A stretch of DNA of 64,000 nt. Origin: Patescibacteria group bacterium (GTDB lineage Bacteria; Patescibacteriota; Minisyncoccia; UBA6257; GWB1-50-10). How positions within the stretch are numbered: the first letter of the stretch is position 1; every line of letters starts with the position of its first letter. Position numbers and translations under genes: made by a program. The stretch spans positions 171,010 through 235,009 of the forward strand of contig JANBVK010000001.1 of assembly GCA_024239035.1 (NCBI GenBank). The letters are read 5' to 3'. Positions 1 to 60,530 of this stretch are shown piece after piece. The notes under the pieces were generated by a model. That model was not told the origin of the DNA. It ran no database searches and saw only the letters and a list, made by a program, of their open reading frames with translations.

Positions 1-326
1 CAATCTTCACAATAAATTGTGTAGGGAGATTTTGAATTGTACATTGAGAGCATAGATTTTTTACACAAATCACACTGACGTTTGTAAAGTGTCCGCTCAT
101 TCCGAAACACAAGTTTCCTTTTCATCCGGCAATCAGGGCACAAACCAGGGCTCAGCACTTTCATTTTTTCATAAAACGCGAAATCATCAGGTTCAATCAT
201 GAACTCCTGTTTACAATTCTGGCAGGTCGAAGACGCTGAGCCTTGTCGAAGTGTCGAAGACGCTGAGCCTTGTCGAAGTGTCGAAGACGCTGAGCCTTGT
301 CGAAGTGTTTTATCTTCTTGATTCAT
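1..326 (-). CDS. Cys-rich multi-zinc-ribbon paralog (array copy 1), N-terminal part only; the 3' end runs past the window start
   Basis: Reverse-complement translation from the ATG at 326 gives MNQEDKTLRQGSASSTLRQGSASSTLRQGSASSTCQNCKQEFMIEPDDFAFYEK...CPDCRMKRKLVFRNERTLYKRQCDLCKKS..., the same N-terminal architecture as the downstream copies. Confidence 0.7.
   Translation of the reverse strand, partial: MNQEDKTLRQGSASSTLRQGSASSTLRQGSASSTCQNCKQEFMIEPDDFAFYEKMKVLSPGLCPDCRMKRKLVFRNERTLYKRQCDLCKKSMLSMYNSKSPYTIYCED
226..306 (-). repeat. Three perfect in-frame tandem copies of a 27-bp unit (GTCGAAGACGCTGAGCCTTGTCGAAGT) encoding TLRQGSASS x3 in the N-terminus of copy 1
   Basis: Read directly from the sequence; the unit length is a multiple of 3 and the reading frame is preserved. 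Confidence 0.9.
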
Positions 327-362
327 AATTCTCTATTCTAATTACCGGTCACTAATTACTAG

Positions 363-2135: not shown

Positions 2136-2187
2136 AGGTCATTTAAAAATTAGAGGACCTTTCTTCCCTTATTATTCTACCTCAAAT

Positions 2188-3954
2188 CTATACTATCTCG
2201 CTCTGATAGCATTGCTCGCAATAAACGACCTCTTTCCTCTCTGGGGCGTAACTTGTTTCAAACTCATTGGGGCACCTCCCTTCCAGATGATGGATATGTT
2301 TCGCGGTATTTTCGCGCACTTTGTAATCACATACGCATTGTCTGTGCCAAAGTTTAAGAGGGTTTCGCATTGCAAATCGTTCCTTATAACGGCAGTTTTC
2401 GCATTTCCTAGGAAGCGCTATCTTTCTCATTCGCAGGAAATCAAGTTCTAGTTTCACTATTCGATACGCGCGTCCACAATCATTACAACCGATCACTTCT
2501 TTAATAATCGAGTCCTCTACGTCTTTTATATCCATAGGTAATTGCGATGACTGCATTGTAGGCGTATAAGGATACTTGTCTGGTTCTCGCCATGAATATC
2601 CCTTTCTTTCAGCCTGCTCTTTTGTAAGAGGCATATATTCCTGGGCAATTGTTTCGTTGTACGCATATAAGCTCAATCCAATTGGAAAAAATTCGCCGTA
2701 TTTATACACACATCCTGTTTTATCAGTATATGGCTTGTCATTCATATGCTCTTTAATTTTAGCTACGAGGGCACCATACTCTTCTTTAGAGTATTGCTTA
2801 TTAAAAATACAATATTCCTTTTTCCTCACACCCGAGCAGCCGAACATGTTGGTAGAATTAAGACACCAATACGCATAGTTACTATCCCTTGTTGCCTCAC
2901 CAAACATGGAAAAAAGAGTCTTATAGCATCCGAAGCCTCCAGCCATGAATTCGTACATTAATTCAGATGTCGCACAGCCAAACATGTCGTAAATCTCTTT
3001 AGCGCCAATTATCCTCGAACTATACTTAATGTTTTCCGATTCATACGCATCAAAAGTGAAATGGGCGTTTTTTGAATTTTCAATATTATCCCCTGTGCAA
3101 TTTATAGTTTTTGTGAAATTAGCGAACTTGTGAAGAGAAGATCTTATAAGCTTCTTGAATTCCTTTTTTAACTCTTGAAACTGGTTATGATTCCCCATGC
3201 TGATTTTATTTATCTCTTTTGAATATTCTTCTTTCGAGCACCGCCTATTTCTAAAAACATAACGTTGATTTCTCAAATTCGAGCTCATGAAACAATTTTG
3301 GCACCCCGAGCAGTCAAAAAGATATGCCGACTCGATGCATTCTCTTGAACGTAACGTAAAACTTGTCCTATTATTACGATCCCCGTCTATATTCTCGTAA
3401 ACCATTTCCGAACCTTCAATATTAAAACTATCAAAGCAGGTCTTGTCTTTGTCCATAAAGCGAGAGTAATATACGTCCTCACTTTCCAATACCGAGTACG
3501 AAAGGTATATGTTCTTGTTGTCAGCAATGAAATTTGCGTAATCTGAATTAATATTTGTATGATATTGTGCAATGGCAATTTGAGGAACTCTCACCAGCAG
3601 TTCTCTATATTGCTGAAAAAACGGCTTATCCCAATTGTATTCCACGCCATATTCAAGCGGATCCCACTTGTCGGAAAACCAACATTCACGGCAATAAACC
3701 TTATACGGTTTATCCGGCGAATACATTGAAATTATAGACTTACCACAAAGGTCACATGAGTCCTTATACAAAGTCCTCTCGTTTCTTACTGCCATACGTC
3801 TCTGTTGTCGGCAGTCCGGACAAAATGTCGGCGGTGGAACACTAATCTTCTCGTAAAACGAGAAGTCATCCGGTTCAATAGTGAACTGGTTTTTACAATT
3901 TTGACAGGTCGGAGATGCTGAGTCTTGTCGAAGTGTTTTGGTTTCGGTATTCAT
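2188..3954 (-). CDS. Cys-rich multi-zinc-ribbon paralog (copy 3); the core is Cys-depleted relative to its siblings
   Basis: The ORF track starts at 3975, but the conserved MNTETKTLRQDSASPTCQNC start is at 3954, in an ATGA overlap with the stop of copy 4. The termini match the family. The core has about half the Cys count of copy 2. Confidence 0.75.
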   Translation of the reverse strand: MNTETKTLRQDSASPTCQNCKNQFTIEPDDFSFYEKISVPPPTFCPDCRQQRRMAVRNERTLYKDSCDLCGKSIISMYSPDKPYKVYCRECWFSDKWDPLEYGVEYNWDKPFFQQYRELLVRVPQIAIAQYHTNINSDYANFIADNKNIYLSYSVLESEDVYYSRFMDKDKTCFDSFNIEGSEMVYENIDGDRNNRTSFTLRSRECIESAYLFDCSGCQNCFMSSNLRNQRYVFRNRRCSKEEYSKEINKISMGNHNQFQELKKEFKKLIRSSLHKFANFTKTINCTGDNIENSKNAHFTFDAYESENIKYSSRIIGAKEIYDMFGCATSELMYEFMAGGFGCYKTLFSMFGEATRDSNYAYWCLNSTNMFGCSGVRKKEYCIFNKQYSKEEYGALVAKIKEHMNDKPYTDKTGCVYKYGEFFPIGLSLYAYNETIAQEYMPLTKEQAERKGYSWREPDKYPYTPTMQSSQLPMDIKDVEDSIIKEVIGCNDCGRAYRIVKLELDFLRMRKIALPRKCENCRYKERFAMRNPLKLWHRQCVCDYKVRENTAKHIHHLEGRCPNEFETSYAPERKEVVYCEQCYQSEIV

Positions 3955-5651
3955 ATCACTTCCTTTTGATAACACTTCTCACAATAAACTATTTCCTTTT
4001 TCTCTGGAGCGTAACCCGTCTTAATTTCCTGACCGCATTTGGCGCATTTACGGTCCCACAGGCGCGGCGGATTGACACGACTCATCCGCTCCATGTGCCT
4101 GCAATCCGGACACTTCCTCGGTAAAGGGAATTCAAACCTGCGAAGCAGATCGAGTTCCGAACGCACTACGCGATATGCTTTTTTACAATCCATACATTCC
4201 AAAACTTCCTGAAGAATAGAATCCGTAACGTCATTGATGCTGTCGGGCATTTTTTCAGATAGTAATGTAATCTTATGCTCAGCCGGCGTTGGTTCGTGCC
4301 ACCGCCAGCCTTTCTCTAGTATCTGCTCCTTCGACAACGGGTAATACTGGTGCGCCGTGGTTTCATTATAATCGAATAAGCTTAGATCGTACGGAATAAA
4401 TTCTCCATATTTCCATACTCTGCCCTTGCTATCAACGTACGGACGCTCATTCATATCCTGAATGATTTTCCCTCTGAGCCTGCTAAAAGATTCTTTGTCG
4501 TACTGCTTGTTTAAAATACAATACCGTTTCTTCTTTACGCAGACACAGCCGAATACATTTGAAGAGGAAACCGCGAACATAGAATACTCATTCTCTAGAG
4601 CGGTATCCCACGTTCCAAAACAAAACCGTATGGTATCAGCCCCTTCTCCAACGGTGATAGAATCACACACACGCTGCACGCCATTCCCCCATTCACTGAG
4701 GTCATAAATATCCTTCGCCGGCTTCAAAGTCATAAACTGACAAAACTTCCCGTCTTCAACAAATCGAGTTTGGTACATATAGTGCGCATTCTTACACTCA
4801 TACACATAGTCTCCGGAAACGTTCACGTTATGAAACCCGTGTATAAATTTACGCGGAAATTTCTCCCAGAAAGTATGGGTTTTTTTCTTCTCTTCTATAA
4901 GAAAGGTATGTGAATCCAACTTTAATGCTTTTAATTTTTCCTCATACTCCTCTTTTGGGTACGGTTTATTGAATATATGATAGTTCTTGTTCCGCAGATT
5001 AACACAGCCAAAACAGTTGTTGCATCCAATGAGACTCTTCGAGAAATATACATCACTGCAACCACTGCAGTCTTCAGAAAAAAACGTCCGGTAACATTTC
5101 CGGCAGTTGATCACTTGATAACATAACTCTGACTCGTCAAGGATAAGCGCGTCCATGGAATCCTTGTCATAATTTACCGTCGTACCATAGAGAACGTTCT
5201 CGCAGTGGTCTGAGTTGAAAATAAGATAACAGTTTTTCGCATACCCTGCGTGGTTTACGTACTCACTATTTACGAGGGTGCTATATCCGGTGACCAAGCT
5301 CATATGCGGCACTTTTCTCTGAACTTCCTTAACCTGCTCAAAGAAATTCCGGCCGGAATCATACTCCATCGCATAATCATCAGAATCCCACTTATCAGAC
5401 CACCAGCACGGCTGGCAGTAAACCGTGTAGGGCTTATCCGGAGAAAAAATAGAAACCACGCTCTTACCGCATAAATCGCACTTACGTTTGTAAAAAACCC
5501 GTTCGTTGCGAAATATCAAACGCCGCTGAAACCTGCACTCCGGACAAAACGTCGGCGCTGGAACGTTCATTTTCTTATAAAAATCAAAATCTTCTGATTC
5601 AATCGTGAACTCCTTCTTACAATTTTGACATTTCTTAACTTCTTGATTCAT
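3951..5651 (-). CDS. Cys-rich multi-zinc-ribbon paralog (copy 4)
   Basis: 566-aa ORF beginning MNQEVKKCQNCKKEFTIESEDFDFYKKMNVPAPTFCPECR. It has the family core and C-terminal zinc ribbons. Confidence 0.8.
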   Translation of the reverse strand: MNQEVKKCQNCKKEFTIESEDFDFYKKMNVPAPTFCPECRFQRRLIFRNERVFYKRKCDLCGKSVVSIFSPDKPYTVYCQPCWWSDKWDSDDYAMEYDSGRNFFEQVKEVQRKVPHMSLVTGYSTLVNSEYVNHAGYAKNCYLIFNSDHCENVLYGTTVNYDKDSMDALILDESELCYQVINCRKCYRTFFSEDCSGCSDVYFSKSLIGCNNCFGCVNLRNKNYHIFNKPYPKEEYEEKLKALKLDSHTFLIEEKKKTHTFWEKFPRKFIHGFHNVNVSGDYVYECKNAHYMYQTRFVEDGKFCQFMTLKPAKDIYDLSEWGNGVQRVCDSITVGEGADTIRFCFGTWDTALENEYSMFAVSSSNVFGCVCVKKKRYCILNKQYDKESFSRLRGKIIQDMNERPYVDSKGRVWKYGEFIPYDLSLFDYNETTAHQYYPLSKEQILEKGWRWHEPTPAEHKITLLSEKMPDSINDVTDSILQEVLECMDCKKAYRVVRSELDLLRRFEFPLPRKCPDCRHMERMSRVNPPRLWDRKCAKCGQEIKTGYAPEKKEIVYCEKCYQKEVI

Positions 5652-5659
5652 GGTTCATG

Positions 5660-7450
5660 CTATACCACCTCTGCGTTGTAACACTGTTCACAGTACACAA
5701 TCTCTTTCCTCTCCGGTGCATATGATGTCTCAAACTCATTGGGACACCTACTTTTACCATGGAAGTGTTCTGTGGTGTTTTCATATCTTGTAGCTTGCCC
5801 TGAGCCTGTCGAAGGGTCACACACGCACTGGCGATGCCAGAGTTTTCGCGGCGGACGCAGGGCAATTTTATTAAGGTAGCGACAGTGGGGACATAATCGG
5901 GGAATTGGTATTTTTTCCCTGCGATATAAATCAAATTCAGAACGTATAATGTTGTAATTTCTCTTGCACTTAACACACATAAGAACTTCATTCACAATAG
6001 AGTCCTCTACATCTTCTATTTTGTCAGGGATATCGTTCGGCTTCACTGTTTCCTTACCAAACGTGCCGGGAACCTGATCTTCCCATCTCCATCCCCTTTT
6101 CATTACTTCTTCTTTGCTAAGCGGCATGTAGATTTGCCCCTGTGTTTCGTTATAACCAAACGGAGAAATCTTTGCAGGGAAAAATTCCCCAAACTCTCCC
6201 GTCTCACTCATGTGCGCAATAATTTTACGTTTCAGCTCCTTATACTCCTCTTCGTTATAACGCTTGTTAAAAATTGAATATTTCCCTTGTTTCACCCCAA
6301 CACAACCGAATAAATTCTCGCTATTGTGGCAACTATCACAGTACATAATATGAGAATCATCATAACTCAGATTCGTGAACAATACGTTATAATCTCTAAT
6401 TAGTGCATGGCATTCATAAATTAATTCACAATTAAACCCAAAATGATACGAATCCATGCACTCCTTGGAATCAATGGCGACAATCAAATATTTTGCATCC
6501 TCTATTCCACTCGCATCAAAAGAATGATGAATATTCTTCGAATTGAATATCATGTTACCGGTGGCATTTGCTGACTGCAAAATTACCGCGGCACGATGTA
6601 ATACGTTATCACGAATTATCGCAAGCCACTTCTCATAAAGCTTTACCCTGCTCTCATACGAGCTCAAATTAAATTCTTCTATTTTCTTCTGGTATTCCTC
6701 TTTAGTATAGGGCTTGTTCAAAATATGATACTGCTTATTGCGGAGATTGTATGAAAGAAAACAATTTGAACAACCGCGACAATCGTAGCAATAATAACAA
6801 TTCGTGCAACCCTCCAACAAAAAACCGTACTGACTTTGATAACATTTATATGAATTAATACATTCGTAAAGAAGTTCATTGCTCTCTTTTTCAATACGAT
6901 AACAATCAATGCAATCTCGCGCAGGAAATATATTAGTGGAATACATCACGTTTTCCGACCAGCCACAACCAAAGCACAAGTAACAATTCTTGTTATCCCA
7001 CGCGTGGTTTGTATATTCTGAATTAACGCTGTTTTTTGTAAGGAGCGCGATGCGAGGCACCTGTAACTGTAGCTCCTGCCACTGCCCAAAAAATGGGCGC
7101 GAGAAATCAAAATCCCGCCCGTATTCCAGCGCATCCCATTTATCACTCCACCAACAAGGCGGGCAATACACCTTAAACGGTTTGTTTAGAGAATATATTG
7201 TTACCGTGCTTTTGCCGCATAAATCACATCTGCGGCGATAGAGCACCCGCTCATTCCGCCACGCATAACGCCTCTGCTGCCGGCAGTCAGGGCACAAAGT
7301 CGGCGGCGGGACACTTATCTTCTCATAAAACGCGAAGTCATCCGGCTTGATGGTAAATTTTTGCTCACAGCTCCGGCATACCTGCACTGAGTTTTGTTGA
7401 AGTGTCGAAGATGCTGAGTCTTCTCGAAGTATTTTAATTTGATTCTCCAT
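5660..7450 (-). CDS. Cys-rich multi-zinc-ribbon paralog (copy 5) with a degenerate 2x N-terminal repeat and a C-terminal 36-nt insertion
   Basis: The likely start is MENQIKILREDSASSTLQQNSVQVC at 7450, in a TAATG overlap with the copy 6 stop. The C-terminus carries CDPSTGSGQATRY. Confidence 0.75.
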   Translation of the reverse strand: MENQIKILREDSASSTLQQNSVQVCRSCEQKFTIKPDDFAFYEKISVPPPTLCPDCRQQRRYAWRNERVLYRRRCDLCGKSTVTIYSLNKPFKVYCPPCWWSDKWDALEYGRDFDFSRPFFGQWQELQLQVPRIALLTKNSVNSEYTNHAWDNKNCYLCFGCGWSENVMYSTNIFPARDCIDCYRIEKESNELLYECINSYKCYQSQYGFLLEGCTNCYYCYDCRGCSNCFLSYNLRNKQYHILNKPYTKEEYQKKIEEFNLSSYESRVKLYEKWLAIIRDNVLHRAAVILQSANATGNMIFNSKNIHHSFDASGIEDAKYLIVAIDSKECMDSYHFGFNCELIYECHALIRDYNVLFTNLSYDDSHIMYCDSCHNSENLFGCVGVKQGKYSIFNKRYNEEEYKELKRKIIAHMSETGEFGEFFPAKISPFGYNETQGQIYMPLSKEEVMKRGWRWEDQVPGTFGKETVKPNDIPDKIEDVEDSIVNEVLMCVKCKRNYNIIRSEFDLYRREKIPIPRLCPHCRYLNKIALRPPRKLWHRQCVCDPSTGSGQATRYENTTEHFHGKSRCPNEFETSYAPERKEIVYCEQCYNAEVV

Positions 7451-9135
7451 TATCCTACTTCTTGAAGATAACATTTATCACAGAAGATTTTATGTTCTTT
7501 CTGTTCTTCCTGCGAATAAGAGGTTTGAAAACCAGCCCCACAGTTAGCACACGTTCCCGGCCAGAGCTGCCGTACATTTCTTGAGCCCATTCTTCTTTGA
7601 TGACGGCAATTAAAACATTCTCGCGGGAGGGGAAGCCCCACTTGTTTATAGAAATTAATTTCCGGTTGAATAAAACGGTAATTTCTGCCGCAGGCATCAC
7701 ACCTCAGAACTTGTTTTATTAAATCTCCCGAATATCCTTTCGGATTCGTCGGAAGTTCATCATGCGAAATAGTTTCCTGTCCGCTAGTTATAGGAATGTC
7801 TTCTTCCCAGCGAAATCCCTGCGCGAGCGCTTCTTTTTTCGCAAGCGGCATATATTCATTAACAATTGATTCATTGTAGGCGAACGCTGAAAGTTCCGGG
7901 GGGTGATACTCCCCCCACTCCCCCGTTTTCTTCATATACTCTATAATTTTCGACTTCAAAGATTCATATTCATCTTTGGAATACTGCTTGTTTAAAATGC
8001 AGTACTCCGCGCTTTTTAAGCCTACACAGCCAAAAATATTATGAGAGTTAAAACAATCTTCCGAATAATAGGCATCTGTAGAATTCACGCAATTCCGGGT
8101 AAAAAACTGTCGCATGCCTTGACCCGCGAGAACTTCGTAACACAGCTCCAAGTCGGGCGAAAAAGAAACATCATAGTCATCAACAGCTTTTCTGAGTGTG
8201 AAAACATATTTAGAATTCTCCCCGCTTTTTACGTCAAATGAATAATGGACGTTTTTAGAATTGTAAATATGGTTGCCGGAAACATCATTATTATGAGATC
8301 CAAAAAAGTATCTCTGCGGAAGTTTTTTCCTAAGACCCTGTTGTTTATTCAAAATTAGAGATATCGTCCTTGGGTCATGTAAAGGGTGTTCGGTCAGAAA
8401 CTTTTCGTATCCCTCCTTCCCAACATTTTCATTAAAAATATGGTAGGACTTCTGCTTCAAACCAACACAGCCTATGCATTGCGTACATCCTCGGCAGTCA
8501 TACAAGCCCACACTATCAGCGCAGTCCTCACACTCTTGTGAATAAAGAAGTCGATATGAACCCAAACAATCCACGCATTCATAACAGAGTTCCCCTTTAA
8601 ACATATAAAGATTGTCAAAACAATCCTTGGAATTCCACACTATATGCCCGTATGCACAATCCTCATCATCAACACAACCAAATACCAGATAACAATTCTT
8701 ACTCTCAAATGTAAGATTCGAATAGACGCAGTTCTCACTCCTTGTGTTCATAACCGCATAATGCGGGACCACTTTTTGCAACTCGGCAAATTGCAGAGAG
8801 AAAGGACGACTAAAATTAAAATCCCGCCCGTACTCCTTCGCGTCCCAGTCATCAGCCCACCATTCCTCATGGCTCCACACCGGAAACGGAGCCTTTTCGG
8901 AATACATTGATATCACTGATTTCCCAGACTTGTCGGATTTTCGCTTGTAGAGCGTCTTAAAATTTCTAAATAATATTCTCCTTCGCTGCCGACATTGGGG
9001 ACAATTCTTCGGCGGCGGAACGCTTATCTTCTCATAAAACGCGAAGTCGTCCGGTTCAATCACGAAAGACGTCCTACAGCTCTGACAAGTCGAAGACACT
9101 GAGTCTTGCCGAAGTGCTTTAGTTTCCTTATTCAT
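7450..9135 (-). CDS. Cys-rich multi-zinc-ribbon paralog (copy 6)
   Basis: 561-aa ORF beginning MNKETKALRQDSVSSTCQSC. The family architecture is present, with a divergent C-terminus CANCGAGFQTSYSQEEQKEHKIFCDKCYLQEV. Confidence 0.8.
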   Translation of the reverse strand: MNKETKALRQDSVSSTCQSCRTSFVIEPDDFAFYEKISVPPPKNCPQCRQRRRILFRNFKTLYKRKSDKSGKSVISMYSEKAPFPVWSHEEWWADDWDAKEYGRDFNFSRPFSLQFAELQKVVPHYAVMNTRSENCVYSNLTFESKNCYLVFGCVDDEDCAYGHIVWNSKDCFDNLYMFKGELCYECVDCLGSYRLLYSQECEDCADSVGLYDCRGCTQCIGCVGLKQKSYHIFNENVGKEGYEKFLTEHPLHDPRTISLILNKQQGLRKKLPQRYFFGSHNNDVSGNHIYNSKNVHYSFDVKSGENSKYVFTLRKAVDDYDVSFSPDLELCYEVLAGQGMRQFFTRNCVNSTDAYYSEDCFNSHNIFGCVGLKSAEYCILNKQYSKDEYESLKSKIIEYMKKTGEWGEYHPPELSAFAYNESIVNEYMPLAKKEALAQGFRWEEDIPITSGQETISHDELPTNPKGYSGDLIKQVLRCDACGRNYRFIQPEINFYKQVGLPLPRECFNCRHQRRMGSRNVRQLWPGTCANCGAGFQTSYSQEEQKEHKIFCDKCYLQEVG

Positions 9136-9152
9136 ATTCTTGGTCGCGGAGT

Positions 9153-10628: not shown

Positions 10629-10633
10629 AAATC

Positions 10634-12328: not shown

Positions 12329-12447
12329 ACGATTTTTTTGCTGTGCCCGTCCGTAGCCTTGGGCGAAGGAGGGTAAAAATCAAAATCCTCCGGTTCGATC
12401 TGAAAAACTGATTTACAATTCTGACAATTTCTAGTTTCGCTATTCAT
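12325..12447 (-). pseudogene. Orphan N-terminal fragment of the paralog family (40 codons), out of frame with copy 7; its stop overlaps the copy 7 ATG
   Basis: Reverse-complement translation from the ATG at 12447 gives MNSETRNCQNCKSVFQIEPEDFDFYPPSPKATDGHSKKIV*. The first 25 aa match the family N-terminal zinc ribbon and the remainder is junk. It is below the ORF-track length cutoff. Confidence 0.45.
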
Positions 12448-12474
12448 AGTCTTAGTCTGAGGTGGTATGACATG

Positions 12475-14244
12475 TTATACCACCTCCGTGTTATAGCAGG
12501 TCTCACAATACACAATCTCCTTCCTCTCCGGTGCGTATGATGTCTCAAACTCATTGGGACACCTGCCCTCTGGGTGATGAGAATGTTTTGTGGTGTTTTT
12601 ATATCTTGTAGCTTGCCCTGAGCCTGTCGAAGGGTCACAAAGGCACTGGCGGTGCCATAACCTATTCGGTCCGCGTGCATTGAATCGCCGCGCGTGCCGG
12701 CAATCGGGACAAAGACGGGGCAAAGGAATGTGCAGATTTCGGTAGAACGAAAACTCGTTTGATATAATCTTATAGTTTTTCTTGCAGTTAAGACAGACAA
12801 AAATCTCGCGCTTCACGTCCAGGTCGTGAACATCGTAAATAGAGTCAGGAACTTTATCCCACGAAATGGTTTCTTTACCAAAAGTACCTCTAGGATAATC
12901 TTCCCATTTGAATCCTTGCTTCAACGCTTCTTCTTTCAATAAAGGGAATTGTTCCTGAACGCATGCCTCATTGTATCCAAAAGTACTAAGCGGCGGCGGG
13001 AAAAATTCTCCATAAACGCCCTCTTTTTTCATATCTTCTATAATGGTTGTCTTTAGTTTCTCGAAAGTCCCTTTGTCATATTCTTTATTTAAAATGCAGT
13101 ACTGCCTCTTCCGCAAACCCGCTGAACCAAAGCAGTGCTGAGAATCATAACAGTACATGCAATATGTTAAAAAGCTGTTTCCCCAACATAAGCTGCAACA
13201 AATACATTGAGAGCTATTGAGTCCGGTATTTGTGGAATTATAGACCAATTCCGCTCCCCGACCAGCGGTGTCACAATCAACACAATCTTTGGCGTTTCGC
13301 CACACATGCACGCTGTATGCGCAATCTTCGGCGTCGTATGCGTGAAAACAGGAACGACAGTTTTTTACATTCTTGATATAATTTCCCGTTGTATTAGTTG
13401 CATTCACGATTTCAGCAAATTTTTGAGGTTGCGTAGCTGCAAATTTTTGAAATTCCTTGCGAAGTTTCTCCACACCGCTATACGTATCTAACTTTGCTGA
13501 TTCCAAAAATTCCCCGTATTCTTTCTTTGAAAGCGGTTTATTAAAAACATGATATTGCTTATTGCGAAGGTTTACGCACCCTATACAATTTGATGAACCA
13601 CGACAATCAAGGAGAAAATAACTCTCGTTTGAATCATGACAACCCTTGCTGTAGAAAAGTTTGTACGAATTATAACAATCGTCGGACTCATAAGAGAGCT
13701 CAGTTTGGTGAGCAAATGAAACGTCAACGCAACTTTTACAGACTTGTATCCAATAACAGTGGGTGCAGTCTTCGTTGTTGGAAGATTCAACAATCATGTA
13801 GCAATTCTTGTTATCCGCAGAGATATTAATGTATTCCGAATTAACGCTTCGCACATGAATGAGGGCTACTTTAGGAACGACTTTCCACAATTCATGAAAC
13901 TGCTCAAAAAAGGGCTTTCCTGAAATATAATTGCGCCCATAATCTCTTGGGTCCCAATCGTCCGAGAACCAGCAGTCATGACACCACACGGTGTATGGCT
14001 TGTTAGGATTATACATTGAGACAATATCTTTCTTACAACGATCACATGGACGTTTATAAAACACTCTCTCGTTCCGGAACGCTAAGCGCCTCTGCGCACG
14101 GCACAAGGGGCACATCTGCGGTACTAGAGTCCCTATTTTCTTATAAAACGAAAGATCATCCGGTTGGATGATGAATTGACTTCTACAGTTTTGGCAGGCC
14201 TGCGCTGAGCTTTGTCGAAGTATTTTATTTTCCGCCTTTTTCAT
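12475..14244 (-). CDS. Cys-rich multi-zinc-ribbon paralog (copy 8) with the C-terminal 36-nt insertion
   Basis: 589-aa ORF beginning MKKAENKILRQSSAQACQNC. The C-terminus carries CDPSTGSGQATRYKNTTKH...NEFETSYAPERKEIVYCETCY. Confidence 0.8.
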   Translation of the reverse strand: MKKAENKILRQSSAQACQNCRSQFIIQPDDLSFYKKIGTLVPQMCPLCRAQRRLAFRNERVFYKRPCDRCKKDIVSMYNPNKPYTVWCHDCWFSDDWDPRDYGRNYISGKPFFEQFHELWKVVPKVALIHVRSVNSEYINISADNKNCYMIVESSNNEDCTHCYWIQVCKSCVDVSFAHQTELSYESDDCYNSYKLFYSKGCHDSNESYFLLDCRGSSNCIGCVNLRNKQYHVFNKPLSKKEYGEFLESAKLDTYSGVEKLRKEFQKFAATQPQKFAEIVNATNTTGNYIKNVKNCRSCFHAYDAEDCAYSVHVWRNAKDCVDCDTAGRGAELVYNSTNTGLNSSQCICCSLCWGNSFLTYCMYCYDSQHCFGSAGLRKRQYCILNKEYDKGTFEKLKTTIIEDMKKEGVYGEFFPPPLSTFGYNEACVQEQFPLLKEEALKQGFKWEDYPRGTFGKETISWDKVPDSIYDVHDLDVKREIFVCLNCKKNYKIISNEFSFYRNLHIPLPRLCPDCRHARRFNARGPNRLWHRQCLCDPSTGSGQATRYKNTTKHSHHPEGRCPNEFETSYAPERKEIVYCETCYNTEVV

Positions 14245-14248
14245 AAAC

Positions 14249-15901
14249 TTATGATATCTGAGTTTGATAACAGTCTGTACACATAACTTTCCGGTAACCC
14301 CACTTCCGAGGATAGAAGTGATTAACTTTCCTGGAACAAAAGATGCACGATCCCCGGTAAGACTTTAACACAGTGAGCGGCTTGAACCGTTCACGTGTTC
14401 GCCAGTCAGGATGATGACGTGGAAGAGGAATTCCGTGCTCCTTATAAAAAGCGAGTTCGTGGCGAGCTATATTAAAGCGCCAGCCGGTTTCAGGACAGAT
14501 AATTGCCTGCGCAGTTATATCATCTCCTACGTTATCAATTCTATCCGGCAGGTCATCCCCGCTTATTCCCTCATAAGCTGTTTCCCGAACATCATCCCAT
14601 CGCCCTCCAATTTTCTCAATATCCTCTTTAGTTTTAGGGAAATACCATTGGGCAAGAGTTAAATTATATCCTGAATACGCAAACGAATATGGAAGAAACA
14701 ATCCCCATTCACCTCTCTGCTTCATCTGTTCTTTAATTTTTGATGTGAGTTTTGCATACTCATCTTCGGTATACTGCTTGTTTAAAATACAATGCTTTTT
14801 CTTTCTTAATCCCACACAGCCAAAACAGTTCTCACAATCCTCACAATAATCTAAATATGCCGAGTGGCGACAATTCGAGCACCACACGTTTACAATTGCA
14901 TCATAATAGGTAATCCCTATACTCATCGCACTCTTTTCTGCCCTGCCAATACCGACAGAATCAATCACATCCTTGTTTTCTAATCCCCTGAATACATATC
15001 TGCAATTCTCTGATTTTTCTAAAAAGTAACACGAGAAACAATCTTTACACTCATTGATAAAGTTTCCGATGGAATTAGTAACTTTAACGTTAAAATTTTC
15101 TCTATGTACGGCCTCTCTCGCCGTAATATCGCTGAACTCTTTCTTGAGTTCTTGAACCTTCTTATATGAATGAGTGTCAAACTTCTTAAGTTCTTCAAAA
15201 TATTTCTCCTTGGAATACGGTTTGTTGAGAATATGATATTGCTTATTTCTCAAATTCCAGCACATAAAACAGTTCTGGACATTGCGACAGTCATAAAGGA
15301 ACATACTCTCCATACAATTTCTAGCATCAAAGGCGTATTTCACCCTGTAGCACTTAAAACAGTAGAGACAATCATAAGACAACTCTGAGTCGAAACAGTA
15401 GGCAAGATCAATTGAATTTTTGCACCCAAAAGCGCGATAGCTATAGCTCAAATATTCACTGCCTATCATTGCTCGACACAAATAGCAGTCCCTACATTCC
15501 CATATGTCGTCACACCAATCACAATTTACGTTCTTTACCCCCTGCTGATGGGGGTGTGGAACACTGGAACGCAACTCCCCAAATTGTTCAAGGAAAGAAC
15601 GTGAAAAATCATATTCTTTTCCATAATCCGTCGGATCCCAGGCATCAGACACCCATTCATTCCGGGCATAAATAGGAAATCCAGCACTCTCCGGTAGTAC
15701 CGTAATTATTGTCTTCCCGCTCAAATCAGACTTTGTTTTTCGAAACTTTCCGAATGTCCAGAAAGCTAACTGATGTCTCCAGCGACACCTCCGGCACTCC
15801 TTTGAGGGAGGAGTGCCTATTTTCTTATACAGGTTAAAATCCTCCGGTCTGATAGTGAACCGCCGCTCACAACTTTTACAAGTTTTAATCTCAGCTATCA
15901 T
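14249..15901 (-). CDS. Cys-rich multi-zinc-ribbon paralog (copy 9, divergent)
   Basis: 550-aa ORF beginning MIAEIKTCKSCERRFTIRPEDFNLYKKIGTPPSKECRRCR. It has the conserved NCFMCWNLRNKQYHILNKPYSKEKY and CFGCVGLRKKKHCILNKQYTEDEY internal repeats. Its start shares an ATGA overlap with the copy 10 stop. Confidence 0.75.
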   Translation of the reverse strand: MIAEIKTCKSCERRFTIRPEDFNLYKKIGTPPSKECRRCRWRHQLAFWTFGKFRKTKSDLSGKTIITVLPESAGFPIYARNEWVSDAWDPTDYGKEYDFSRSFLEQFGELRSSVPHPHQQGVKNVNCDWCDDIWECRDCYLCRAMIGSEYLSYSYRAFGCKNSIDLAYCFDSELSYDCLYCFKCYRVKYAFDARNCMESMFLYDCRNVQNCFMCWNLRNKQYHILNKPYSKEKYFEELKKFDTHSYKKVQELKKEFSDITAREAVHRENFNVKVTNSIGNFINECKDCFSCYFLEKSENCRYVFRGLENKDVIDSVGIGRAEKSAMSIGITYYDAIVNVWCSNCRHSAYLDYCEDCENCFGCVGLRKKKHCILNKQYTEDEYAKLTSKIKEQMKQRGEWGLFLPYSFAYSGYNLTLAQWYFPKTKEDIEKIGGRWDDVRETAYEGISGDDLPDRIDNVGDDITAQAIICPETGWRFNIARHELAFYKEHGIPLPRHHPDWRTRERFKPLTVLKSYRGSCIFCSRKVNHFYPRKWGYRKVMCTDCYQTQIS

Positions 15902-17694
15902 ATTACTTCACTTTGATAACATTGTTCGCAGTATACAATCTCTCTCCTTTCTGGAGCATAACTTGTCTCAAATTCATTGGGACACCTGCCTTCCAGGTGA
16001 TGATCATGCTTCGTGATATTCTTATATCTTGTAGCTTGCCCTGAGCCTGTCGAAGGGTCGCATACGCACCGGCGATGATACAACTTACTCTTATTTCTCT
16101 GGGCAACCCTCGCATTGTGCCTACAGTCCACACACGTCCGGGGCGCAGAAATCTTTTCTACACGCAGGAAATCAAGTTCCGGTTTAATGAGCCGATACGC
16201 CCTTTTACAATCACTGCACCGAATAATCTCCTTTAAAATACTATCCTGAATATCGTTTATGGAGTCGGGTATATCTTCCGATTTCATCGTAATCTCATAC
16301 TCCCGCGATGACGGTTCCTGCCATTTATATCCTTCTTCCTCTGCCTGTTCTTTCGTCAACGGAAAATGCTCGTTGGCAATGGTTTGATTGTAACCAAAAG
16401 GAGAAAGTTCTATGGGGAAAAACTCACCGTATTTATAGATCCTTCCTTTTTTATCAATATATGGCTTTTCACCCATTTGCTTCTTAATTCTCTCTACCAG
16501 CATTTCATACTCCTCTTTAGAATATTCTTTGTTTAAAATACAATGTTGCTTTTTACGCAAACCAACGCAACCGAATAAATTTGATGCCGAATGACAATAT
16601 ATACAATATTCCATATCCCGAATGTCCGTCCATGACTCGACGCAGAACTTCACGTTAAACGTCCCCATACCGGTAACAGCATTCTCATACCCCAATTGAT
16701 TGTTCTGACCCCAAACCGTCACATCATAGCAGTCTTTATTGGGTGGAAACTGGTAATATTGAACATATTTTAAGTTTTCACCTTCTCTAACTAAGTAACT
16801 TTGGCGGACATTTTTAGAGTTGGTAACGTACTCACCGCTCACGTTAGTGTTTTTAATCCCTTGTAGATACTTATTGGGAAACTTCTTCCAAAACTCACTT
16901 ACACCCCCTTTCACCGCAGTAAGGCCGTTCCACGAATGCAAATTCATCCCCTTAATCTTTCTTTCATATTCCTCCTTGGAATAAGGAGTATTATAAATAT
17001 GATACTTTTTATTGCGGAGGTTAACACACCCAAAACAATCACTGCAACCTTTGCAATTCTTTGAAAACCACACGCCGTGACAGTCCTCGCACTGTGAAGA
17101 AAAGTGCGTTTGATAACAATTCTCCAGCCAGAACGAGTCATAGCAACGCTCACACCTACCGATATGTGAATTGTCAAAACAGTTCTTACAATTATCCACT
17201 CCGTTACCATAGGCACAATCTTCGTCCTTATTTGAGTTAAACATCAAATAGCAGTTTCTCAGATAGCCGGCATTGGCGCAATATTCGCTGTTTACCATAT
17301 TAAGCACTGAAAGATTAAATCTTGGTACCACTTTAGCAAGTTCGAAAAATTGTTCAAAAAAGGTTCGTGAAAAATCGTAATCCCTTCCGTAGGAGGTTGC
17401 ATCCCAATCATCAGCCCACCACTCTTTCTCTTCATATAAAGTAACTTCTGATTCCGGAGGATAGAGAGCTAAAATTTCCTTCCCGGATTTTGCGCTCTTT
17501 GTTCTAAAGAGTTTCCGCTCGTTGCGAGACGCAATCCTTCTCTGAAATCTACACTCCGGACAAAACGTCGGCGGCGGGACGCTGATTTTCTTGTAGAAAT
17601 CAAGGTCCTCCGGTTCGATGGTGAACTCTGTTTTACAGTTCTGGCAGGTCGAAGACACTGAGTCTTGTCGAAGTGTTTTGGTTTCAGTATTCAT
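15898..17694 (-). CDS. Cys-rich multi-zinc-ribbon paralog (copy 10) with the C-terminal 36-nt insertion
   Basis: The likely start is MNTETKTLRQDSVSSTCQNC at 17694, in an ATGA overlap with the copy 11 stop. The C-terminus carries CDPSTGSGQATRYKNITKH. Confidence 0.75.
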   Translation of the reverse strand: MNTETKTLRQDSVSSTCQNCKTEFTIEPEDLDFYKKISVPPPTFCPECRFQRRIASRNERKLFRTKSAKSGKEILALYPPESEVTLYEEKEWWADDWDATSYGRDYDFSRTFFEQFFELAKVVPRFNLSVLNMVNSEYCANAGYLRNCYLMFNSNKDEDCAYGNGVDNCKNCFDNSHIGRCERCYDSFWLENCYQTHFSSQCEDCHGVWFSKNCKGCSDCFGCVNLRNKKYHIYNTPYSKEEYERKIKGMNLHSWNGLTAVKGGVSEFWKKFPNKYLQGIKNTNVSGEYVTNSKNVRQSYLVREGENLKYVQYYQFPPNKDCYDVTVWGQNNQLGYENAVTGMGTFNVKFCVESWTDIRDMEYCIYCHSASNLFGCVGLRKKQHCILNKEYSKEEYEMLVERIKKQMGEKPYIDKKGRIYKYGEFFPIELSPFGYNQTIANEHFPLTKEQAEEEGYKWQEPSSREYEITMKSEDIPDSINDIQDSILKEIIRCSDCKRAYRLIKPELDFLRVEKISAPRTCVDCRHNARVAQRNKSKLYHRRCVCDPSTGSGQATRYKNITKHDHHLEGRCPNEFETSYAPERREIVYCEQCYQSEVI

Positions 17695-19436
17695 ACCACT
17701 TCCGCCTGATAGCACTCCTCACAATAGGGCTTGTAGCCATCAGTAGATTTATAACTGGAGTAAATTTCCTTGTTACAATTGTGACACTTTTCGGGGAAAA
17801 TCCGATAGTTGTTCAAAATGGCAAATCGATCAACTATCCTTTGGTAGGGATATCTGGTTGGGATAGGCAGTTTTTTTCTTCTGTAAAACTTGAGTTCGGA
17901 AGAAATAATCCGAAAGGGATAGCCGGTCTTCTCGCAAATAAGAGCTTTATTTACAATATCATCAGTGACATCTTTAATATCTTTTGGAATATCACGAACA
18001 GAAACCGTCTCCATTCCCTTGACATCAATATTGACTTCTTCTTGCCACAGAGCACCAAACTTCTCAATTTGCTCTTTATTTAACGGAAAGATGATCTGGG
18101 CCATCGAATCATTGTAGGCGAAGGTACTAAATTTCAAGGGGAAAAATTCTCCATACTCTCCCCTTTCTAAAAGCTTTGTTTTAATGTCATCAACTATTGC
18201 CCAATATTCATCCTCCTCATACTGTTTATTAAAAATACAATACTGTTTATTCTCTACACCGACACAAGCGAAACAATTAATGCAATGGAGACAATTTATC
18301 AAGTACTCCGATTCGATAATAAACTTTGAAGCGAAAGAAAACTTGACCCTTGAACCCTCGGAACCTACTCCTACTGTCTCATATAGTAATTCCGAACCAC
18401 CCGAAATGCTGTAGTCCATTGAATCTTTATTCCTAACGGTTATTTCAGCAAATCTGAGGTTCTCTGACTTCTCAGCGTGAAAAACGTTGTCACAATTCTT
18501 GCAGCTGGCAATTTGATTCCCAAACGAATTATGTGACTTATCAATTCTAGTAGCTCTGACGGGAGACTCCTTAACCAGATTCCAAAACTTAGCTTTATAG
18601 CCCTCGAGTAATTCCCTATCACCAAGGTAAATTTTCTTTCTCTCTTTTCTATATTCTTCTTCGGATAATTGTTTATTAAAAATACAATATTTCTTATTCC
18701 GAAGGTTAACACAGCCAAAGCAGTCACTGCAGTTACGGCAATCATAAATGAAGGCGCAATCTAAGCAATCATTTGAAAAGTAAGCATAATCACATCGGTA
18801 GCATTTCTTGGTAAGAACGCTTTCATAACACTGTTCACATTTCCAAATACTATAACAATCAATGCTGTCCCTGGAGTTAAAAACTGACATGCTATAAGAT
18901 ATATTCTCGGAACGCCAGCCTCCTGAGACATAGTAGCCATTTTTCAAATCTCTCCCTCCTAGGGTGTAGTCGCTGTTTATACAATAAGGATCACGAATAA
19001 TAGTGGGTTGAGGAACAACGCTTCTCAATTTTTCATAATAAGTATCAAAAAATGGCTCGCTAACCTCATATTCCTGGCCATATTTCAGGGGATCCCAGCC
19101 GGCTGACCGATAAAATTTAAAATCATATACGGTAAAATCTTTCACGGGCGAAACAAAAGAGACAACTTGCTCATCATGCCGGGGAGCATCACAGGACCGT
19201 TTATATAATTTAATAGTGTGTCCGAAGGTCAAACGTCTCTGCCGACGGCAGTTAGGACAGAGGGTGGGCGGGGGCACGCGGAGTAAATTATAAAACTCAA
19301 TATCCCTTTCTATTATTTCAAACTCTTTCAAACAATAAGGTGATTTCCCCGACCAAGCACATTTCCTGGTATGCGGCTTGATATCCTTCAATATCTCATC
19401 AAGCGCCCTGTCAAATTGTGGCGTTTTAGATATCAT
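17691..19436 (-). CDS. Cys-rich multi-zinc-ribbon paralog (copy 11, most divergent)
   Basis: 581 aa. The N-terminus KCAWSGKSPYCLKEFEIIERDIEFYNLLRVPPPTLCPNCRRQRR and the core motifs CSDCFGCVNLRNKKYCIFNKQLSEEEY and CINCFACVGVENKQYCIFNKQYEEDEY are retained. Confidence 0.75.
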   Translation of the reverse strand: MISKTPQFDRALDEILKDIKPHTRKCAWSGKSPYCLKEFEIIERDIEFYNLLRVPPPTLCPNCRRQRRLTFGHTIKLYKRSCDAPRHDEQVVSFVSPVKDFTVYDFKFYRSAGWDPLKYGQEYEVSEPFFDTYYEKLRSVVPQPTIIRDPYCINSDYTLGGRDLKNGYYVSGGWRSENISYSMSVFNSRDSIDCYSIWKCEQCYESVLTKKCYRCDYAYFSNDCLDCAFIYDCRNCSDCFGCVNLRNKKYCIFNKQLSEEEYRKERKKIYLGDRELLEGYKAKFWNLVKESPVRATRIDKSHNSFGNQIASCKNCDNVFHAEKSENLRFAEITVRNKDSMDYSISGGSELLYETVGVGSEGSRVKFSFASKFIIESEYLINCLHCINCFACVGVENKQYCIFNKQYEEDEYWAIVDDIKTKLLERGEYGEFFPLKFSTFAYNDSMAQIIFPLNKEQIEKFGALWQEEVNIDVKGMETVSVRDIPKDIKDVTDDIVNKALICEKTGYPFRIISSELKFYRRKKLPIPTRYPYQRIVDRFAILNNYRIFPEKCHNCNKEIYSSYKSTDGYKPYCEECYQAEVV

Positions 19437-21124
19437 ACAACCTCACTTTGATAACATGGTTCGCAATATACAATTTCGGGTCTGTCAGGAGCATAGGTAG
19501 TCCTTATCTTCTTCTTGCACTTCGCGCACTCGCGGTCATAAAGCTTCATTGGATTGAGTTTCTTCACGCGCGCATAATCCCGACACAGCGGGCATTTTTG
19601 CGGAATAGGAATCTGAAATCTGCGATAGAGGTTCAATTCACCCTTTATTAACTTATAGTTCTTGCCGCATTTTTCACACTTGAGAATCCCTTTCAAAATG
19701 TCATCCGTCACGTCTCTAATATGGTCCGGTACACTCACGGTTGCATCCTGATACTCCCGTAAATCGGGGTCTCGCCACCGAAATCCCTTCTTTAAGGCCT
19801 CTTCCTTACCGAGCGGATACCATTCGTATGCGGTAGATTCATTGTATGCCCACGGGAGAAACTCCGCAGGAAACAACTCGCCATACCTATACTCTCTGCC
19901 AAGCTTATCCCGATATGGGACCTCTATCATTTGCTTTTTTATTTTCTGGACTTTATCCTGATATTCATCTTTTGAATACTGCTTATTTAAAATACAGTAT
20001 TCAGAACTTCGTATTCCAACACACCCAAAAATATTTCCGGAGCCATGGCATCCGAAACAATACTCTACATCGTGACAACGATAAACCCACTCTCCAAATT
20101 TCACATTATTAACGTTGATACCCGTCCAGGAACTCTCATAAATCCATTCCGCTTTATCCGCAAACATCGTGTAGTCATATGATTGCGCTACGGGACCATC
20201 CTTTAGCAGCTGACAATATCTGCAATTCTCACCGTTTCTGACCATAAATGAATCTTGTACGTTTTTGCAGCTAAAAATGTAATCCCCGGAAGAATTTGTG
20301 TTTTTCCTCCCATGAAATTCTTTACGAGGAAATTTTCTTATAAAATCGTTAACCTTTTTCTTGAATTCCCCAACGCTTTTCGCCGAACCGAAGTTAAATT
20401 CACCAACCAGTCGCTCGTACTCCTCTTTTGAGTAAGGTTTATTAAAAATGTGATAACTTTTATTCCTTAAATTGATACAGCCGACACAAGAAGAACACCC
20501 CATAAGATCTTGAGAAAACCATATATCGTGGCAATCCTCGCAATCCTGTGAATAAAACGTCCGGTAACATTTATTAATCGTCACCGATCCGTAGCAGAGC
20601 TCACAGTTATTAGAAAACGAAACGTCAAAACAATCCTTCATATATTGGATTGTATTCAAATATGCGCAATCCTCGCTGTGATCTGCTTTGAAACATAAAT
20701 AACAATTCTTTAACGTAGCGGCGGCATTACAGTACTCGCTGTTTATCATCGTTGTATATTCGGTGTAGAGCGCCGGGAAGGGAACCTCCTGCAACAATTC
20801 GTGGAACTGTTCAAAAAATGATCGGGAGAAATCATAATCCCGCCCATAACTTTTAGAATCCCACTTATCAGACCACCATATATCTTGGCGGTATACCTTA
20901 TGCGCCAAGTCCGGAGAATGAACGGATATCACCATATCCCCTGTGAAATCACACTTACGCTTATAGAGAACGCGGTATCCTTGTGCTGCTACTCTCCGTA
21001 TGAACCGGCACTCCGGACACCATGTCGGCGGCGGCACATGTATTGTCTCATAAAACCCAAAATCATCCGATTCAATCGTGAACTTTTGCTTACAGCTTTG
21101 ACACTGTCGAGTTTCTTGCTTCAT
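19433..21124 (-). CDS. Cys-rich multi-zinc-ribbon paralog (copy 12), the first gene of the array in the transcription direction
   Basis: 563-aa ORF beginning MKQETRQCQSCKQKFTIESDDFGFYETIHVPPPTWCPECR, with the full family architecture. Its stop shares an ATGA overlap with the copy 11 start. Confidence 0.8.
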   Translation of the reverse strand: MKQETRQCQSCKQKFTIESDDFGFYETIHVPPPTWCPECRFIRRVAAQGYRVLYKRKCDFTGDMVISVHSPDLAHKVYRQDIWWSDKWDSKSYGRDYDFSRSFFEQFHELLQEVPFPALYTEYTTMINSEYCNAAATLKNCYLCFKADHSEDCAYLNTIQYMKDCFDVSFSNNCELCYGSVTINKCYRTFYSQDCEDCHDIWFSQDLMGCSSCVGCINLRNKSYHIFNKPYSKEEYERLVGEFNFGSAKSVGEFKKKVNDFIRKFPRKEFHGRKNTNSSGDYIFSCKNVQDSFMVRNGENCRYCQLLKDGPVAQSYDYTMFADKAEWIYESSWTGINVNNVKFGEWVYRCHDVEYCFGCHGSGNIFGCVGIRSSEYCILNKQYSKDEYQDKVQKIKKQMIEVPYRDKLGREYRYGELFPAEFLPWAYNESTAYEWYPLGKEEALKKGFRWRDPDLREYQDATVSVPDHIRDVTDDILKGILKCEKCGKNYKLIKGELNLYRRFQIPIPQKCPLCRDYARVKKLNPMKLYDRECAKCKKKIRTTYAPDRPEIVYCEPCYQSEVV

Positions 21125-21144: not shown

Positions 21145-21176
21145 AAAGAATACTAGATTTAAATCTAGTATTCTTT
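21145..21176. promoter_or_regulatory. Perfect 32-bp palindrome (AAAGAATACTAGATTT|AAATCTAGTATTCTTT) 21 nt upstream of the array start codon. Candidate operator and/or terminator of the upstream ATPase gene
   Basis: The 16/16 inverted repeat is read from the sequence. On the minus-strand sense it overlaps a weak -35/-10 pair (TTTAAA ... TATGAT), followed by AGGG and then ATG. Confidence 0.45.
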
Positions 21177-22702: not shown

Positions 22703-22724
22703 GCGATGTTTTAATTTTTAATTT

Positions 22725-23243: not shown

Positions 23244-23245
23244 AT

Positions 23246-59182: not shown

Positions 59183-59217
59183 TTCTATAAATATTAGAGT
59201 CCTTCAATTTTTATAGA
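59183..59217. terminator. Inverted repeat (ttctataaa ... tttatagaa) between the convergent GT39 and pilin genes; candidate bidirectional terminator
   Basis: 9-bp arms with an 17-nt loop. The right arm overlaps the last codons of the pilin gene. Confidence 0.35.
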
Positions 59218-60513: not shown

Positions 60514-60530
60514 AAATTATCAGTCATTTG

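Follow-up and report, generated by a model that had tools for sequence, protein, structure and literature searches.

A tandem array of multi-zinc-finger solenoid proteins adjoining a VirD4/TrwB-like ATPase module in a Patescibacteria genome

The 64-kb stretch of DNA analyzed here (hereafter, the window; contig JANBVK010000001.1 of a Patescibacteria group bacterium, positions 171,010 to 235,009) opens with a long tandem array of paralogous genes encoding an unnamed family of large, cysteine-rich proteins, followed on its upstream side by a membrane ATPase module. Listing and translation of open reading frames (ORFs) reveal 11 complete family genes of 550 to 605 amino acids (aa) and 1 partial gene, all on the minus strand, plus the unrelated gene pepA. 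A single family profile covers all 11 complete copies over positions ~1-568, in agreement with the original prediction, made from the sequence alone, of at least 12 tandem paralogs interrupted by pepA. We numbered the copies W1 to W11 following transcription, with W12 being cut by position 1 and W13 lying outside the window. That the array would run on beyond position 1 had also been foreseen, and the source scaffold (729,382 bp, from a Patescibacteria metagenome-assembled genome) indeed completes W12 (580 aa) and adds W13 (582 aa), giving 13 copies in all. At ~1.75 kb per gene these make up ~3.1% of the 729-kb scaffold, and the array spans ~23 kb. Downstream of W13 the scaffold encodes an APH-type kinase, a class II aminoacyl-tRNA synthetase (tRNA-synt_2b plus HGTP_anticodon), and then MreB.

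The first gene of the array is W1 (19433-21124, 563 aa), followed by W2 (17691-19436, 581 aa), W3 (15898-17694), W4 (14249-15901, 550 aa, among the most divergent copies), W5 (12475-14244, 589 aa), W6 (10634-12328, 564 aa), pepA (9153-10628, an M17 leucyl aminopeptidase with E 6e-113), W7 (7450-9135, 561 aa), W8 (5660-7450), W9 (3951-5651, 566 aa, 100% identical to NCBI KJI72_01005), W10 (2188-3954), W11 (363-2135, 590 aa) and the N-terminal part of W12 (1-326), all on the minus strand and called from ORFs and the family profile. The ORFs of W3, W8, and W10 reach to 17715, 7474, and 3975, and their likely starts are internal ATG codons at 17694, 7450, and 3954, respectively. With these starts the tight junctions are as they had been described, with ATGA overlaps at W1/W2, W2/W3, W3/W4, and W9/W10 and a TAATG junction at W7/W8. 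The remaining junctions are mostly gaps of 4 to 52 nucleotides (nt), and co-transcription of the array would fit this packing; scans for promoters and terminators gave results no better than those for shuffled sequence. The W5/W6 gap is longer (146 nt) and holds a 40-codon ORF (12325-12447, minus strand) whose TGA overlaps the ATG of W6. Residues 1-25 of this ORF match the start of the family up to the first CxxC and a DFDFY motif, after which comes a repeat-like tail (PPSPKATDGHS), so that it looks like the fossil of a deleted family copy. An insertion of pepA into the array is found in at least three lineages, namely this window and the loci L007 and L090 (7414-8850). We exclude that the array is an assembly artefact from a collapsed or expanded repeat because the copies are only 31-49% identical to each other and the same order is found in an independent assembly (Logan contig L002), as it also is in related genomes; the original prediction had likewise held the copies to be distinct.

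All family members share one architecture, which we describe with the residue numbers of W9, the copy that was modelled with AlphaFold2 from an 89-sequence alignment. The model is a single compact unit (predicted local distance difference test score, pLDDT, 89.9; predicted template modelling score, pTM, 0.88) in which only residues ~270-340 have a pLDDT of 60-70. The chain starts with finger 1 (C8, C11, C36, C39; CxxC-x24-CxxC) and finger 2 (C58, C61, C79, C82; CxxC-x17-CxxC), followed by a helical linker that bears a WSDKWD...FEQF block. Two solenoids follow, A (residues 127-232, then a helical hairpin) and B (residues 263-385, then a helix), and after a conserved domain of ~50 residues (403-455) the protein ends with finger 3 (C486, C489, C514, C517) and finger 4 (C536, C539, C557, C560; again with x17 spacing). 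The terminal finger pairs are of the treble-clef type (fold reviewed in PMC4999995), and the N-terminal and C-terminal pairs comprise the same two types. Profile-profile alignment with hhalign bears out the two internal repeats that had been proposed, that is, the duplication of the core (solenoid A versus B, probability 99.9%, E 2e-31) and the recurrence of the N-terminal ribbon types at the C-terminus (finger 1 versus 3, E 4e-16; finger 2 versus 4, E 2e-13), with all homologous pairs at probabilities of 98-99.9%. The chain ends exactly 5 residues past the last CxxCY, as xxE[VI]x, in 440 of 458 sequences. Both termini are basic (isoelectric point, pI, ~9-10), with helices rich in R/K following the CPxCR knuckle, in contrast to a neutral to acidic core.

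Conservation across 468 distinct family sequences distinguishes the fingers from the core. The cysteines of fingers 1 and 4 are ~100% conserved; the N-terminal ribbon of the original prediction is therefore real, but its spacing is x24 and the x17 assigned to it belongs to fingers 2 and 4. Those of finger 3 are 82-99% conserved, and this finger is degenerate in W2, W4, and W13. Finger 2, the second Cys4 pair that had been described as common to all copies, does exist but follows an all-or-none pattern—the four cysteines are complete in 47% of the sequences and in only 5 of the 11 complete window copies, with W4 among the degenerate ones—which is what a single metal site would give. A CxxC-x17-CxxC domain has been shown to bind zinc by inductively coupled plasma mass spectrometry in small proteins of Methanosarcina mazei (PMC12704099), and the invariant Cys4 sites of this type support the earlier prediction of metal binding. 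No copy contains a transmembrane segment or a stretch resembling a signal peptide (the highest 19-residue Kyte-Doolittle mean is 1.23), again as anticipated. The family proteins are thus predicted to be cytoplasmic and to bind several zinc ions per chain.

The two solenoids show a strand pattern of EEEE--E--E-- with a 12-residue period, corresponding in the W9 model to 12-residue coils with ~9-10 coils per solenoid. Their cysteines lie at positions 0, 3, 6, and 9 modulo 12 and form ladders, so that the cysteine-dense core noted earlier is confirmed in outline. Most of these residues are only 30-80% conserved in the 89-sequence alignment, however, and in the larger set of 468 sequences they interchange with Ser, Val, Ala, and Leu; we read them as small fillers in the core of a very narrow solenoid rather than as obligate ligands. 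Each solenoid is closed by a conserved cap motif, [NS]xFGCxxLxxKxY[HC]I[FL]NK, followed by a helix. Cap A has three cysteines (C210, C213, and C216) conserved at 86-96%, and position 225, which co-varies with C216, is occupied by His (37%), Cys (33%), or Tyr (19%); in cap B, C369 and C378 are conserved at 95% and 90%. An additional Cys3-His/Cys metal site in each solenoid cap is therefore a plausible candidate. Solenoid B is the part of the protein that is least conserved and least confidently modelled. Each protein contains 24-41 Cys (5-7% of residues) and 7-18 His, and many non-Cys residues (W, Y, N, D, and F) are invariant.

Database searches agree with the original prediction in leaving the family without a name, as only the terminal fingers match known models. 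Finger 1 matches zf_Tbcl (PF13451) in W7 with 25.1 bits against a Pfam cut-off of 24 (W6, with 18.3 bits, stays below it), a match that covers residues ~1-50 only, and finger 3, as a homolog of finger 1, is tied to the same model. Fingers 2 and 4 match zf_Tbcl_2 (PF23477; 29.5 bits against a cut-off of 27 in W9, ~35 residues per finger), and W9 falls below the cut-off of the NCBIfam model TIGR04272 (27.8 against 36 bits). Proteins of these finger types (TIGR04272/PF23477 and PF13451) are small stand-alone proteins of ~40-60 aa, whereas the present family carries four such modules on a core of ~370 residues. In several copies scanned, this solenoid core matched nothing in Pfam, NCBIfam, or PADLOC, and an unannotated PHROGs group (phrog_15341) is a weak match to it. 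A profile search of the sequences in the PDB returned LIM-type fingers only (E>=0.003), and Foldseek searches of the PDB and BFVD gave generic beta-solenoids at most, with template modelling (TM) scores of ~0.1. Tblastn against 50,697 phage records found no homolog, and viral contigs of IMG/VR gave one marginal match, so that we reject an origin from phages or mobile elements.

Comparison with known solenoids and metal proteins places the family in none of the established solenoid, defense, or metal-protein families. One parallel is the antifreeze beta-helix of Tenebrio molitor (PF02420), which likewise has 12-residue coils. That protein is a secreted, disulfide-bonded chain of 84 aa with a TxT ice-binding face and cysteines at i and i+6, whereas the family proteins are predicted to be cytoplasmic, have ~560 aa with two solenoids and flanking zinc fingers, carry Cys at every third position, and lack TxT. 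They do not belong to PF02420, and convergence is the most likely source of the resemblance. Pentapeptide-repeat and left-handed hexapeptide beta-helix proteins are, like this family, cytoplasmic solenoids with regular ladders and appear as generic fold matches, but their coils have 20 and 18 residues instead of 12, TM scores are ~0.1, and the family has neither the A(D/N)LXX or [LIV]Gxxxx motifs nor a Pfam match to either group. Nor are these proteins ferredoxins or metallothioneins, given that Pfam and NCBIfam scans returned no Fer4 or metallothionein match, that Cys makes up only 5-7% of ~560 aa, and that most core cysteines are unconserved.

Sequences of the family are nonetheless abundant. 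A word-indexed search found at least 8,000 clusters at 90% identity, all named "hypothetical protein", and an exhaustive search found at least 2,399 clusters at 50% identity (E<=1e-30), with all 150 matches listed being near full length (~550-600 aa). At least 568 stretches in species-representative genomes encode family relatives. The named lineages all belong to the Parcubacteria/Paceibacteria (Giovannoni-, Sung-, Lipton-, and Jorgensenbacteria). For locus comparisons we used 79 loci found through the family, many of which hold 2-9 copies within ~20 kb, some of them frameshifted. The literature searched contained no description of the family, of PF13451, or of DUF8128 (see below), and by these databases and this literature the family, its combination of folds, and its link to orphan coupling-type ATPases are undescribed, with the sequences themselves being already public as hypothetical proteins.

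Immediately upstream of the array, at 21209-24652 on the same strand, lies a three-gene module that the original prediction did not mention. Its first gene encodes a membrane protein of 468 aa (23246-24652) with N-terminal hydrophobic helices, whose homologs are annotated as DUF8128 (PF26449), and is followed by the gene of a small membrane protein of 172 aa (22725-23243) that is a conserved partner between the DUF8128 gene and the ATPase gene. The third gene, directly upstream of W1, encodes a VirD4/TrwB-like ATPase of 497 aa (21209-22702; hereafter, type 1) that comprises the nucleotide-binding part only. It scores above the Pfam cut-offs of TrwB_AAD_bind (28.3 against 20.5), T4SS-DNA_transf (30.2 against 20.1), DUF87 (31.7 against 23.2), and TraG-D_C (23.2 against 22), has a P-loop domain of the TrwB/VirD4 type, and finds its best relative in the PDB in the conjugative coupling protein TrwB. 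Coupling proteins such as VirD4, TrwB, and TraD carry an N-terminal membrane anchor on the same chain, while here the anchor is found on separate genes, so that the module is split over three genes and the large DUF8128 protein replaces the short two-helix anchor. The 84-nt gap between the ATPase stop and the W1 start contains a perfect 13-bp AT-rich hairpin (21146-21175, minus strand; fold z-score of the gap -4.0) without a clear U-run after it, which could be an attenuator, a terminator, or a protein-binding palindrome.

The association of this module with the family is recurrent. When all ORFs outside the family were clustered across the 79 loci, no neighbor recurred nearly as often as the ATPase, of which 31 of the loci hold 45 genes. 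The distance to a family gene is below 1 kb for 39 of these genes, 44 have the same orientation, and they are often interspersed among the family genes. Over 1.2 Mb of DNA, this amounts to 3.75 ATPase genes per 100 kb. A survey across the Candidate Phyla Radiation (CPR) counted 5,713 VirD4-like genes in 2,918 genomes, or about two per genome (10.1101/2025.01.22.634366), compared to which the local density is more than 10-fold above background—a rough figure, as detection thresholds differ. The reverse test gave the same picture, as all 5 look-ups from type 1 ATPase homologs of different lineages led to a DUF8128 gene, a gene for a protein of 156-173 aa, the ATPase gene, optionally a gene for a 58-aa protein or for CutA1, and then 1-6 family genes. 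CutA1, a divalent-cation tolerance protein, is encoded in 13 loci, where its gene either separates the type 1 ATPase gene from the first gene of the family or lies within the array (e.g., L007 2607-2921, L009 9305-9628, and L090 5399-5713), with none in this window. The type 1 ATPases (~490 aa) of the fetched loci are 67-85% identical to that of the window, and the best database matches, from several genera, reach 79-87%.

The array is often closed by a paralogous ATPase of a second type, which was found downstream of the family genes in 2 of the 5 reverse look-ups. In these type 2 ATPases, of 634-868 aa, the ATPase domain is followed by a CxxC-x17-CxxC finger and a tail of 185-450 residues that in one example is rich in lysine, glutamate, and proline and apparently disordered. 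This finger, whose type is also that of fingers 2 and 4 in the family, is present on 16 of 47 neighboring ATPases, one of which was scanned against NCBIfam and matched TIGR04272 (E 1.5e-15).

The evolution of the array speaks against the suggestion, made tentatively in the original prediction, that its copies are rapidly diversifying recognition or immunity-type modules. Paralogs within the genome are 31-49% identical to each other, whereas 11 of the 13 share 54-69% identity with their closest relative in another genus; the other two, W2 and W10, are only slightly closer to a relative in another genus (45% and 49%) than to copies within the genome (37% and 46%). Since most copies are closer to copies of another genus than to their neighbors, the duplications are old rather than a recent burst. 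Nei-Gojobori estimates of the ratio of nonsynonymous to synonymous divergence (dN/dS) are 0.075-0.10 for five ortholog pairs with no domain segment above 0.15; synonymous sites were saturated in W5, the sixth pair, and in a single segment of W9. The family is under purifying selection, and with these ratios and ancient orthogroups shared across genera we reject recent or rapid diversification; the absence of matches in PADLOC and of homologs in phage records also goes against the suggested immunity role.

What differs between related genomes is the content of the array, a comparison that the original prediction had called for. In locus L082, W2, W4, W5, W9, and W13 are retained with their order unchanged (73-94% identity). 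W3, the block of W6, pepA, W7, and W8, then W12, and also the kinase gene are missing, and W10 and W11 have only distant relatives (48% and 53%), which lie upstream of W2. L082 has ~7 copies compared to 13 here. Copy number ranges from 1 to 13 between genomes, and array content changes by gain and loss of blocks and not by fast sequence evolution. Synonymous divergence between the same two genomes (window copies against their L082/L084 orthologs) runs from 0.31 for W2 to saturation for W5, and such unequal values suggest that the array is a mosaic formed by recombination between populations or replacement of single copies. Clustering at 55% identity for mapping paralog-specific positions was of little help, as single linkage merged most sequences.

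The array also carries a short repeated DNA element. W12 contains a perfect 27-nt tandem repeat in 3 copies (226-306, minus strand), encoding three units of LRQGSASST at its N-terminus, and degenerate copies occur in other family genes. The element, CTTCGACA(A)GGCTCAG..., is found inside family genes in two reading frames, with related sites near 3908, 7404, 9089, and 17648 and also near 5809, 12627, and 16050. N-terminal sites of the element encode LRQ(G/D)S(A/V)SST, and those situated C-terminally in W3, W5, and W8 are read as PSTGSGQAT. The 27-nt unit has 7 matches in the window against 0 expected, all of them inside the array, and may promote unequal recombination between copies.

How might the family and the ATPase work together? 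The conservation of the neighborhood through many rearrangements and the finger type common to the family and the second ATPase make functional coupling the most economical explanation, and we consider such coupling likely. We tentatively favor, with somewhat less than even confidence, the more specific reading that the membrane VirD4/TrwB-like ATPase has the family members as its clients, either cargo or adaptors. As cargo, they would be Sec-independent substrates that the ATPase passes on for export or injection; as adaptors, they would carry different cargo, be it nucleic acid or protein, to the ATPase. The CxxC-x17-CxxC finger would serve as a docking or common-ligand element in either case, and the solenoid would offer a surface specific to each paralog. 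Indirect hints at secretion substrates are the lack of a Sec signal, the basic C-terminal region, the fixed xxE[VI]x C-terminus, and the adjacency of the ATPase. Arrays of Sec-less cargo downstream of FtsK/HerA-type ATPases have precedents in the substrates of type VII secretion systems encoded behind essC/eccC and in coupling-protein-dependent type IV effectors. By analogy with EssC/EccC, the locus described here likewise has an ATPase of the FtsK/HerA superfamily upstream and on the same strand of a Sec-less paralog array of variable length.

A number of observations weigh against this client reading. The link between family and ATPase is a genomic one only, and with all loci coming from one bacterial class the adjacency could partly be inherited synteny. 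Unlike at loci of VirD4, TrwB, or TraD, the surroundings showed no genes for a relaxase, VirB4, or a channel—among the Pfam-scanned genes of the window, none was identified as encoding VirB4, VirB6, or a relaxase, with a few ORFs (e.g., 61661-62872 and 62887-63993) lying outside that scan—and the ATPase at 21209-22702 is far under the curated NCBIfam cut-offs for all named TraD/VirD4 families. The putative clients are large zinc-finger/solenoid proteins unlike known effectors; compact, zinc-stabilized proteins of this kind are awkward as cargo for a translocase that needs unfolded substrates, and with their very low dN/dS and deeply conserved orthogroups they resemble housekeeping genes more than typical host-directed effectors. 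Fetched DNA of 48 of the 79 loci contains no ATPase gene (many of these loci being short), some loci also have SecDF and a sigma-like gene as conserved upstream neighbors, and a second ATPase of the same superfamily (54676-57030, minus strand, 784 aa) has no family genes adjoining.

The alternative that survives best is that the family members act on their own as cytoplasmic nucleic-acid binders (RNA or DNA chaperones, regulators, or ribonucleoprotein scaffolds) and that the ATPase adjacency is a matter of gene order only. Nucleic acid would be held by the basic finger pairs, with the solenoid as a spacer or a second binding face. Treble-clef and zinc-ribbon modules are often nucleic-acid binders, which together with the basic termini and the R/K-rich helices after the CPxCR knuckle suits this idea, as does the core cellular role suggested by strong purifying selection and deep conservation. 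The pepA product of Escherichia coli is a DNA-binding moonlighter, and pepA lies within the array in three lineages. A complete family member is even fused to an NYN nuclease domain (L088 11803-14202; Pfam E 1e-16), but this fusion is a singleton among the 120 best matches, and no NYN genes are found near other arrays. Autonomous nucleic-acid binding also leaves unexplained why 13 paralogs are retained in a 729-kb genome, why the ATPase stays on the same strand within 1 kb through many rearrangements, and why the family shares a finger with the type 2 ATPase. We therefore regard it as doubtful, if worth serious attention.

Quite improbable, in our view, is a structural or cytoskeletal polymer in which solenoids of several paralogs stack end to end, similar to bactofilin or curli, into a filament inside the cell or extruded by the ATPase. 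Many conserved paralogs under purifying selection would suit the subunits of a hetero-assembly, and mreB/mreC lie just downstream of the array. Against this stand the conserved cap motifs and helices at both solenoid ends, given that capping usually prevents end-to-end stacking, as well as the compact model with the finger pairs packed on the solenoids and the variation in copy number from 1 to 13.

It seems very improbable that the array is an immune or recognition repertoire inside the cell, with invaders sensed by variable solenoid surfaces and the FtsK/HerA-type ATPase as the motor or effector. Tandem multi-copy arrays with unequal content between related genomes and a second solenoid that shows less conservation and lower model confidence than the rest are features that such a system might show, and the ATPase has weak, partial matches to the HerA and mad8 models in PADLOC (E 6e-13). 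The family itself, by contrast, matched no defense family in PADLOC-DB 2.0 (four copies searched at E<=0.1), and the low dN/dS without any elevated domain and the ancient orthogroups shared across genera speak of constraint. The cross-genus conservation of the type 1 ATPase suits a core gene rather than a patchy defense island, and the surroundings of the array are housekeeping genes (uvrABC, rpoBC, secDF, and mreB). Scarcely credible, finally, is a metallothionein- or ferredoxin-like store or buffer for metal or redox equivalents, for which the main hint is the recurrence of CutA1 between ATPase and array in 13 loci, next to the Cys and His content of the proteins and a P-type cation ATPase encoded in the window (27950-30634), but which is at odds with the modest share of Cys, the ready replacement of most solenoid cysteines by other residues, the many invariant non-Cys residues, the lack of Fer4 or metallothionein matches, and a fixed 560-aa architecture that would be superfluous for buffering.

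Two further places in the window deserve mention. In the second ATPase (54676-57030), a DUF8128-like membrane part is fused to the nucleotide-binding part, and its gene has those of a GtrA-like protein and a glycosyltransferase as neighbors. At 59194-61631 on the minus strand lie two adjacent genes for proteins with LamG/concanavalin-like domains, at least one of which has an N-terminal type IV pilin methylation motif; these proteins may be pilus-tip adhesins.

Paceibacteria (Parcubacteria) are among the most abundant uncultivated bacteria, with genomes below 1 Mb, and how they interact with their hosts is largely unknown. At its boldest, the client reading would make the locus part of an unrecognized export or injection pathway of these organisms that is central to their episymbiosis, with a split orphan VirD4-like ATPase handling up to 13 ancient Cys-ladder solenoid proteins per genome, whose destination would be the cell surface or the inside of the host cell, and with the CxxC-x17-CxxC finger as recognition module, but we consider this full scenario unlikely. 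Irrespective of function, the family is large (at least 2,399 clusters at 50% identity), with a core of ~370 residues that has no Pfam model or solved relative, and the modelled fold would be a new structural theme—a solenoid of 12-residue coils with Cys at every third residue, probable Cys3-His/Cys caps, and four flanking zinc fingers. The CPR survey found thousands of VirD4-like coupling ATPases away from type IV secretion genes and without known partners, with only 148 of the 5,713 homologs of type IV coupling proteins near virB4, and suggested that they may have other functions (10.1101/2025.01.22.634366). For one highly conserved class of these orphan ATPases in CPR bacteria, the neighborhood described here gives a concrete set of candidate partners.

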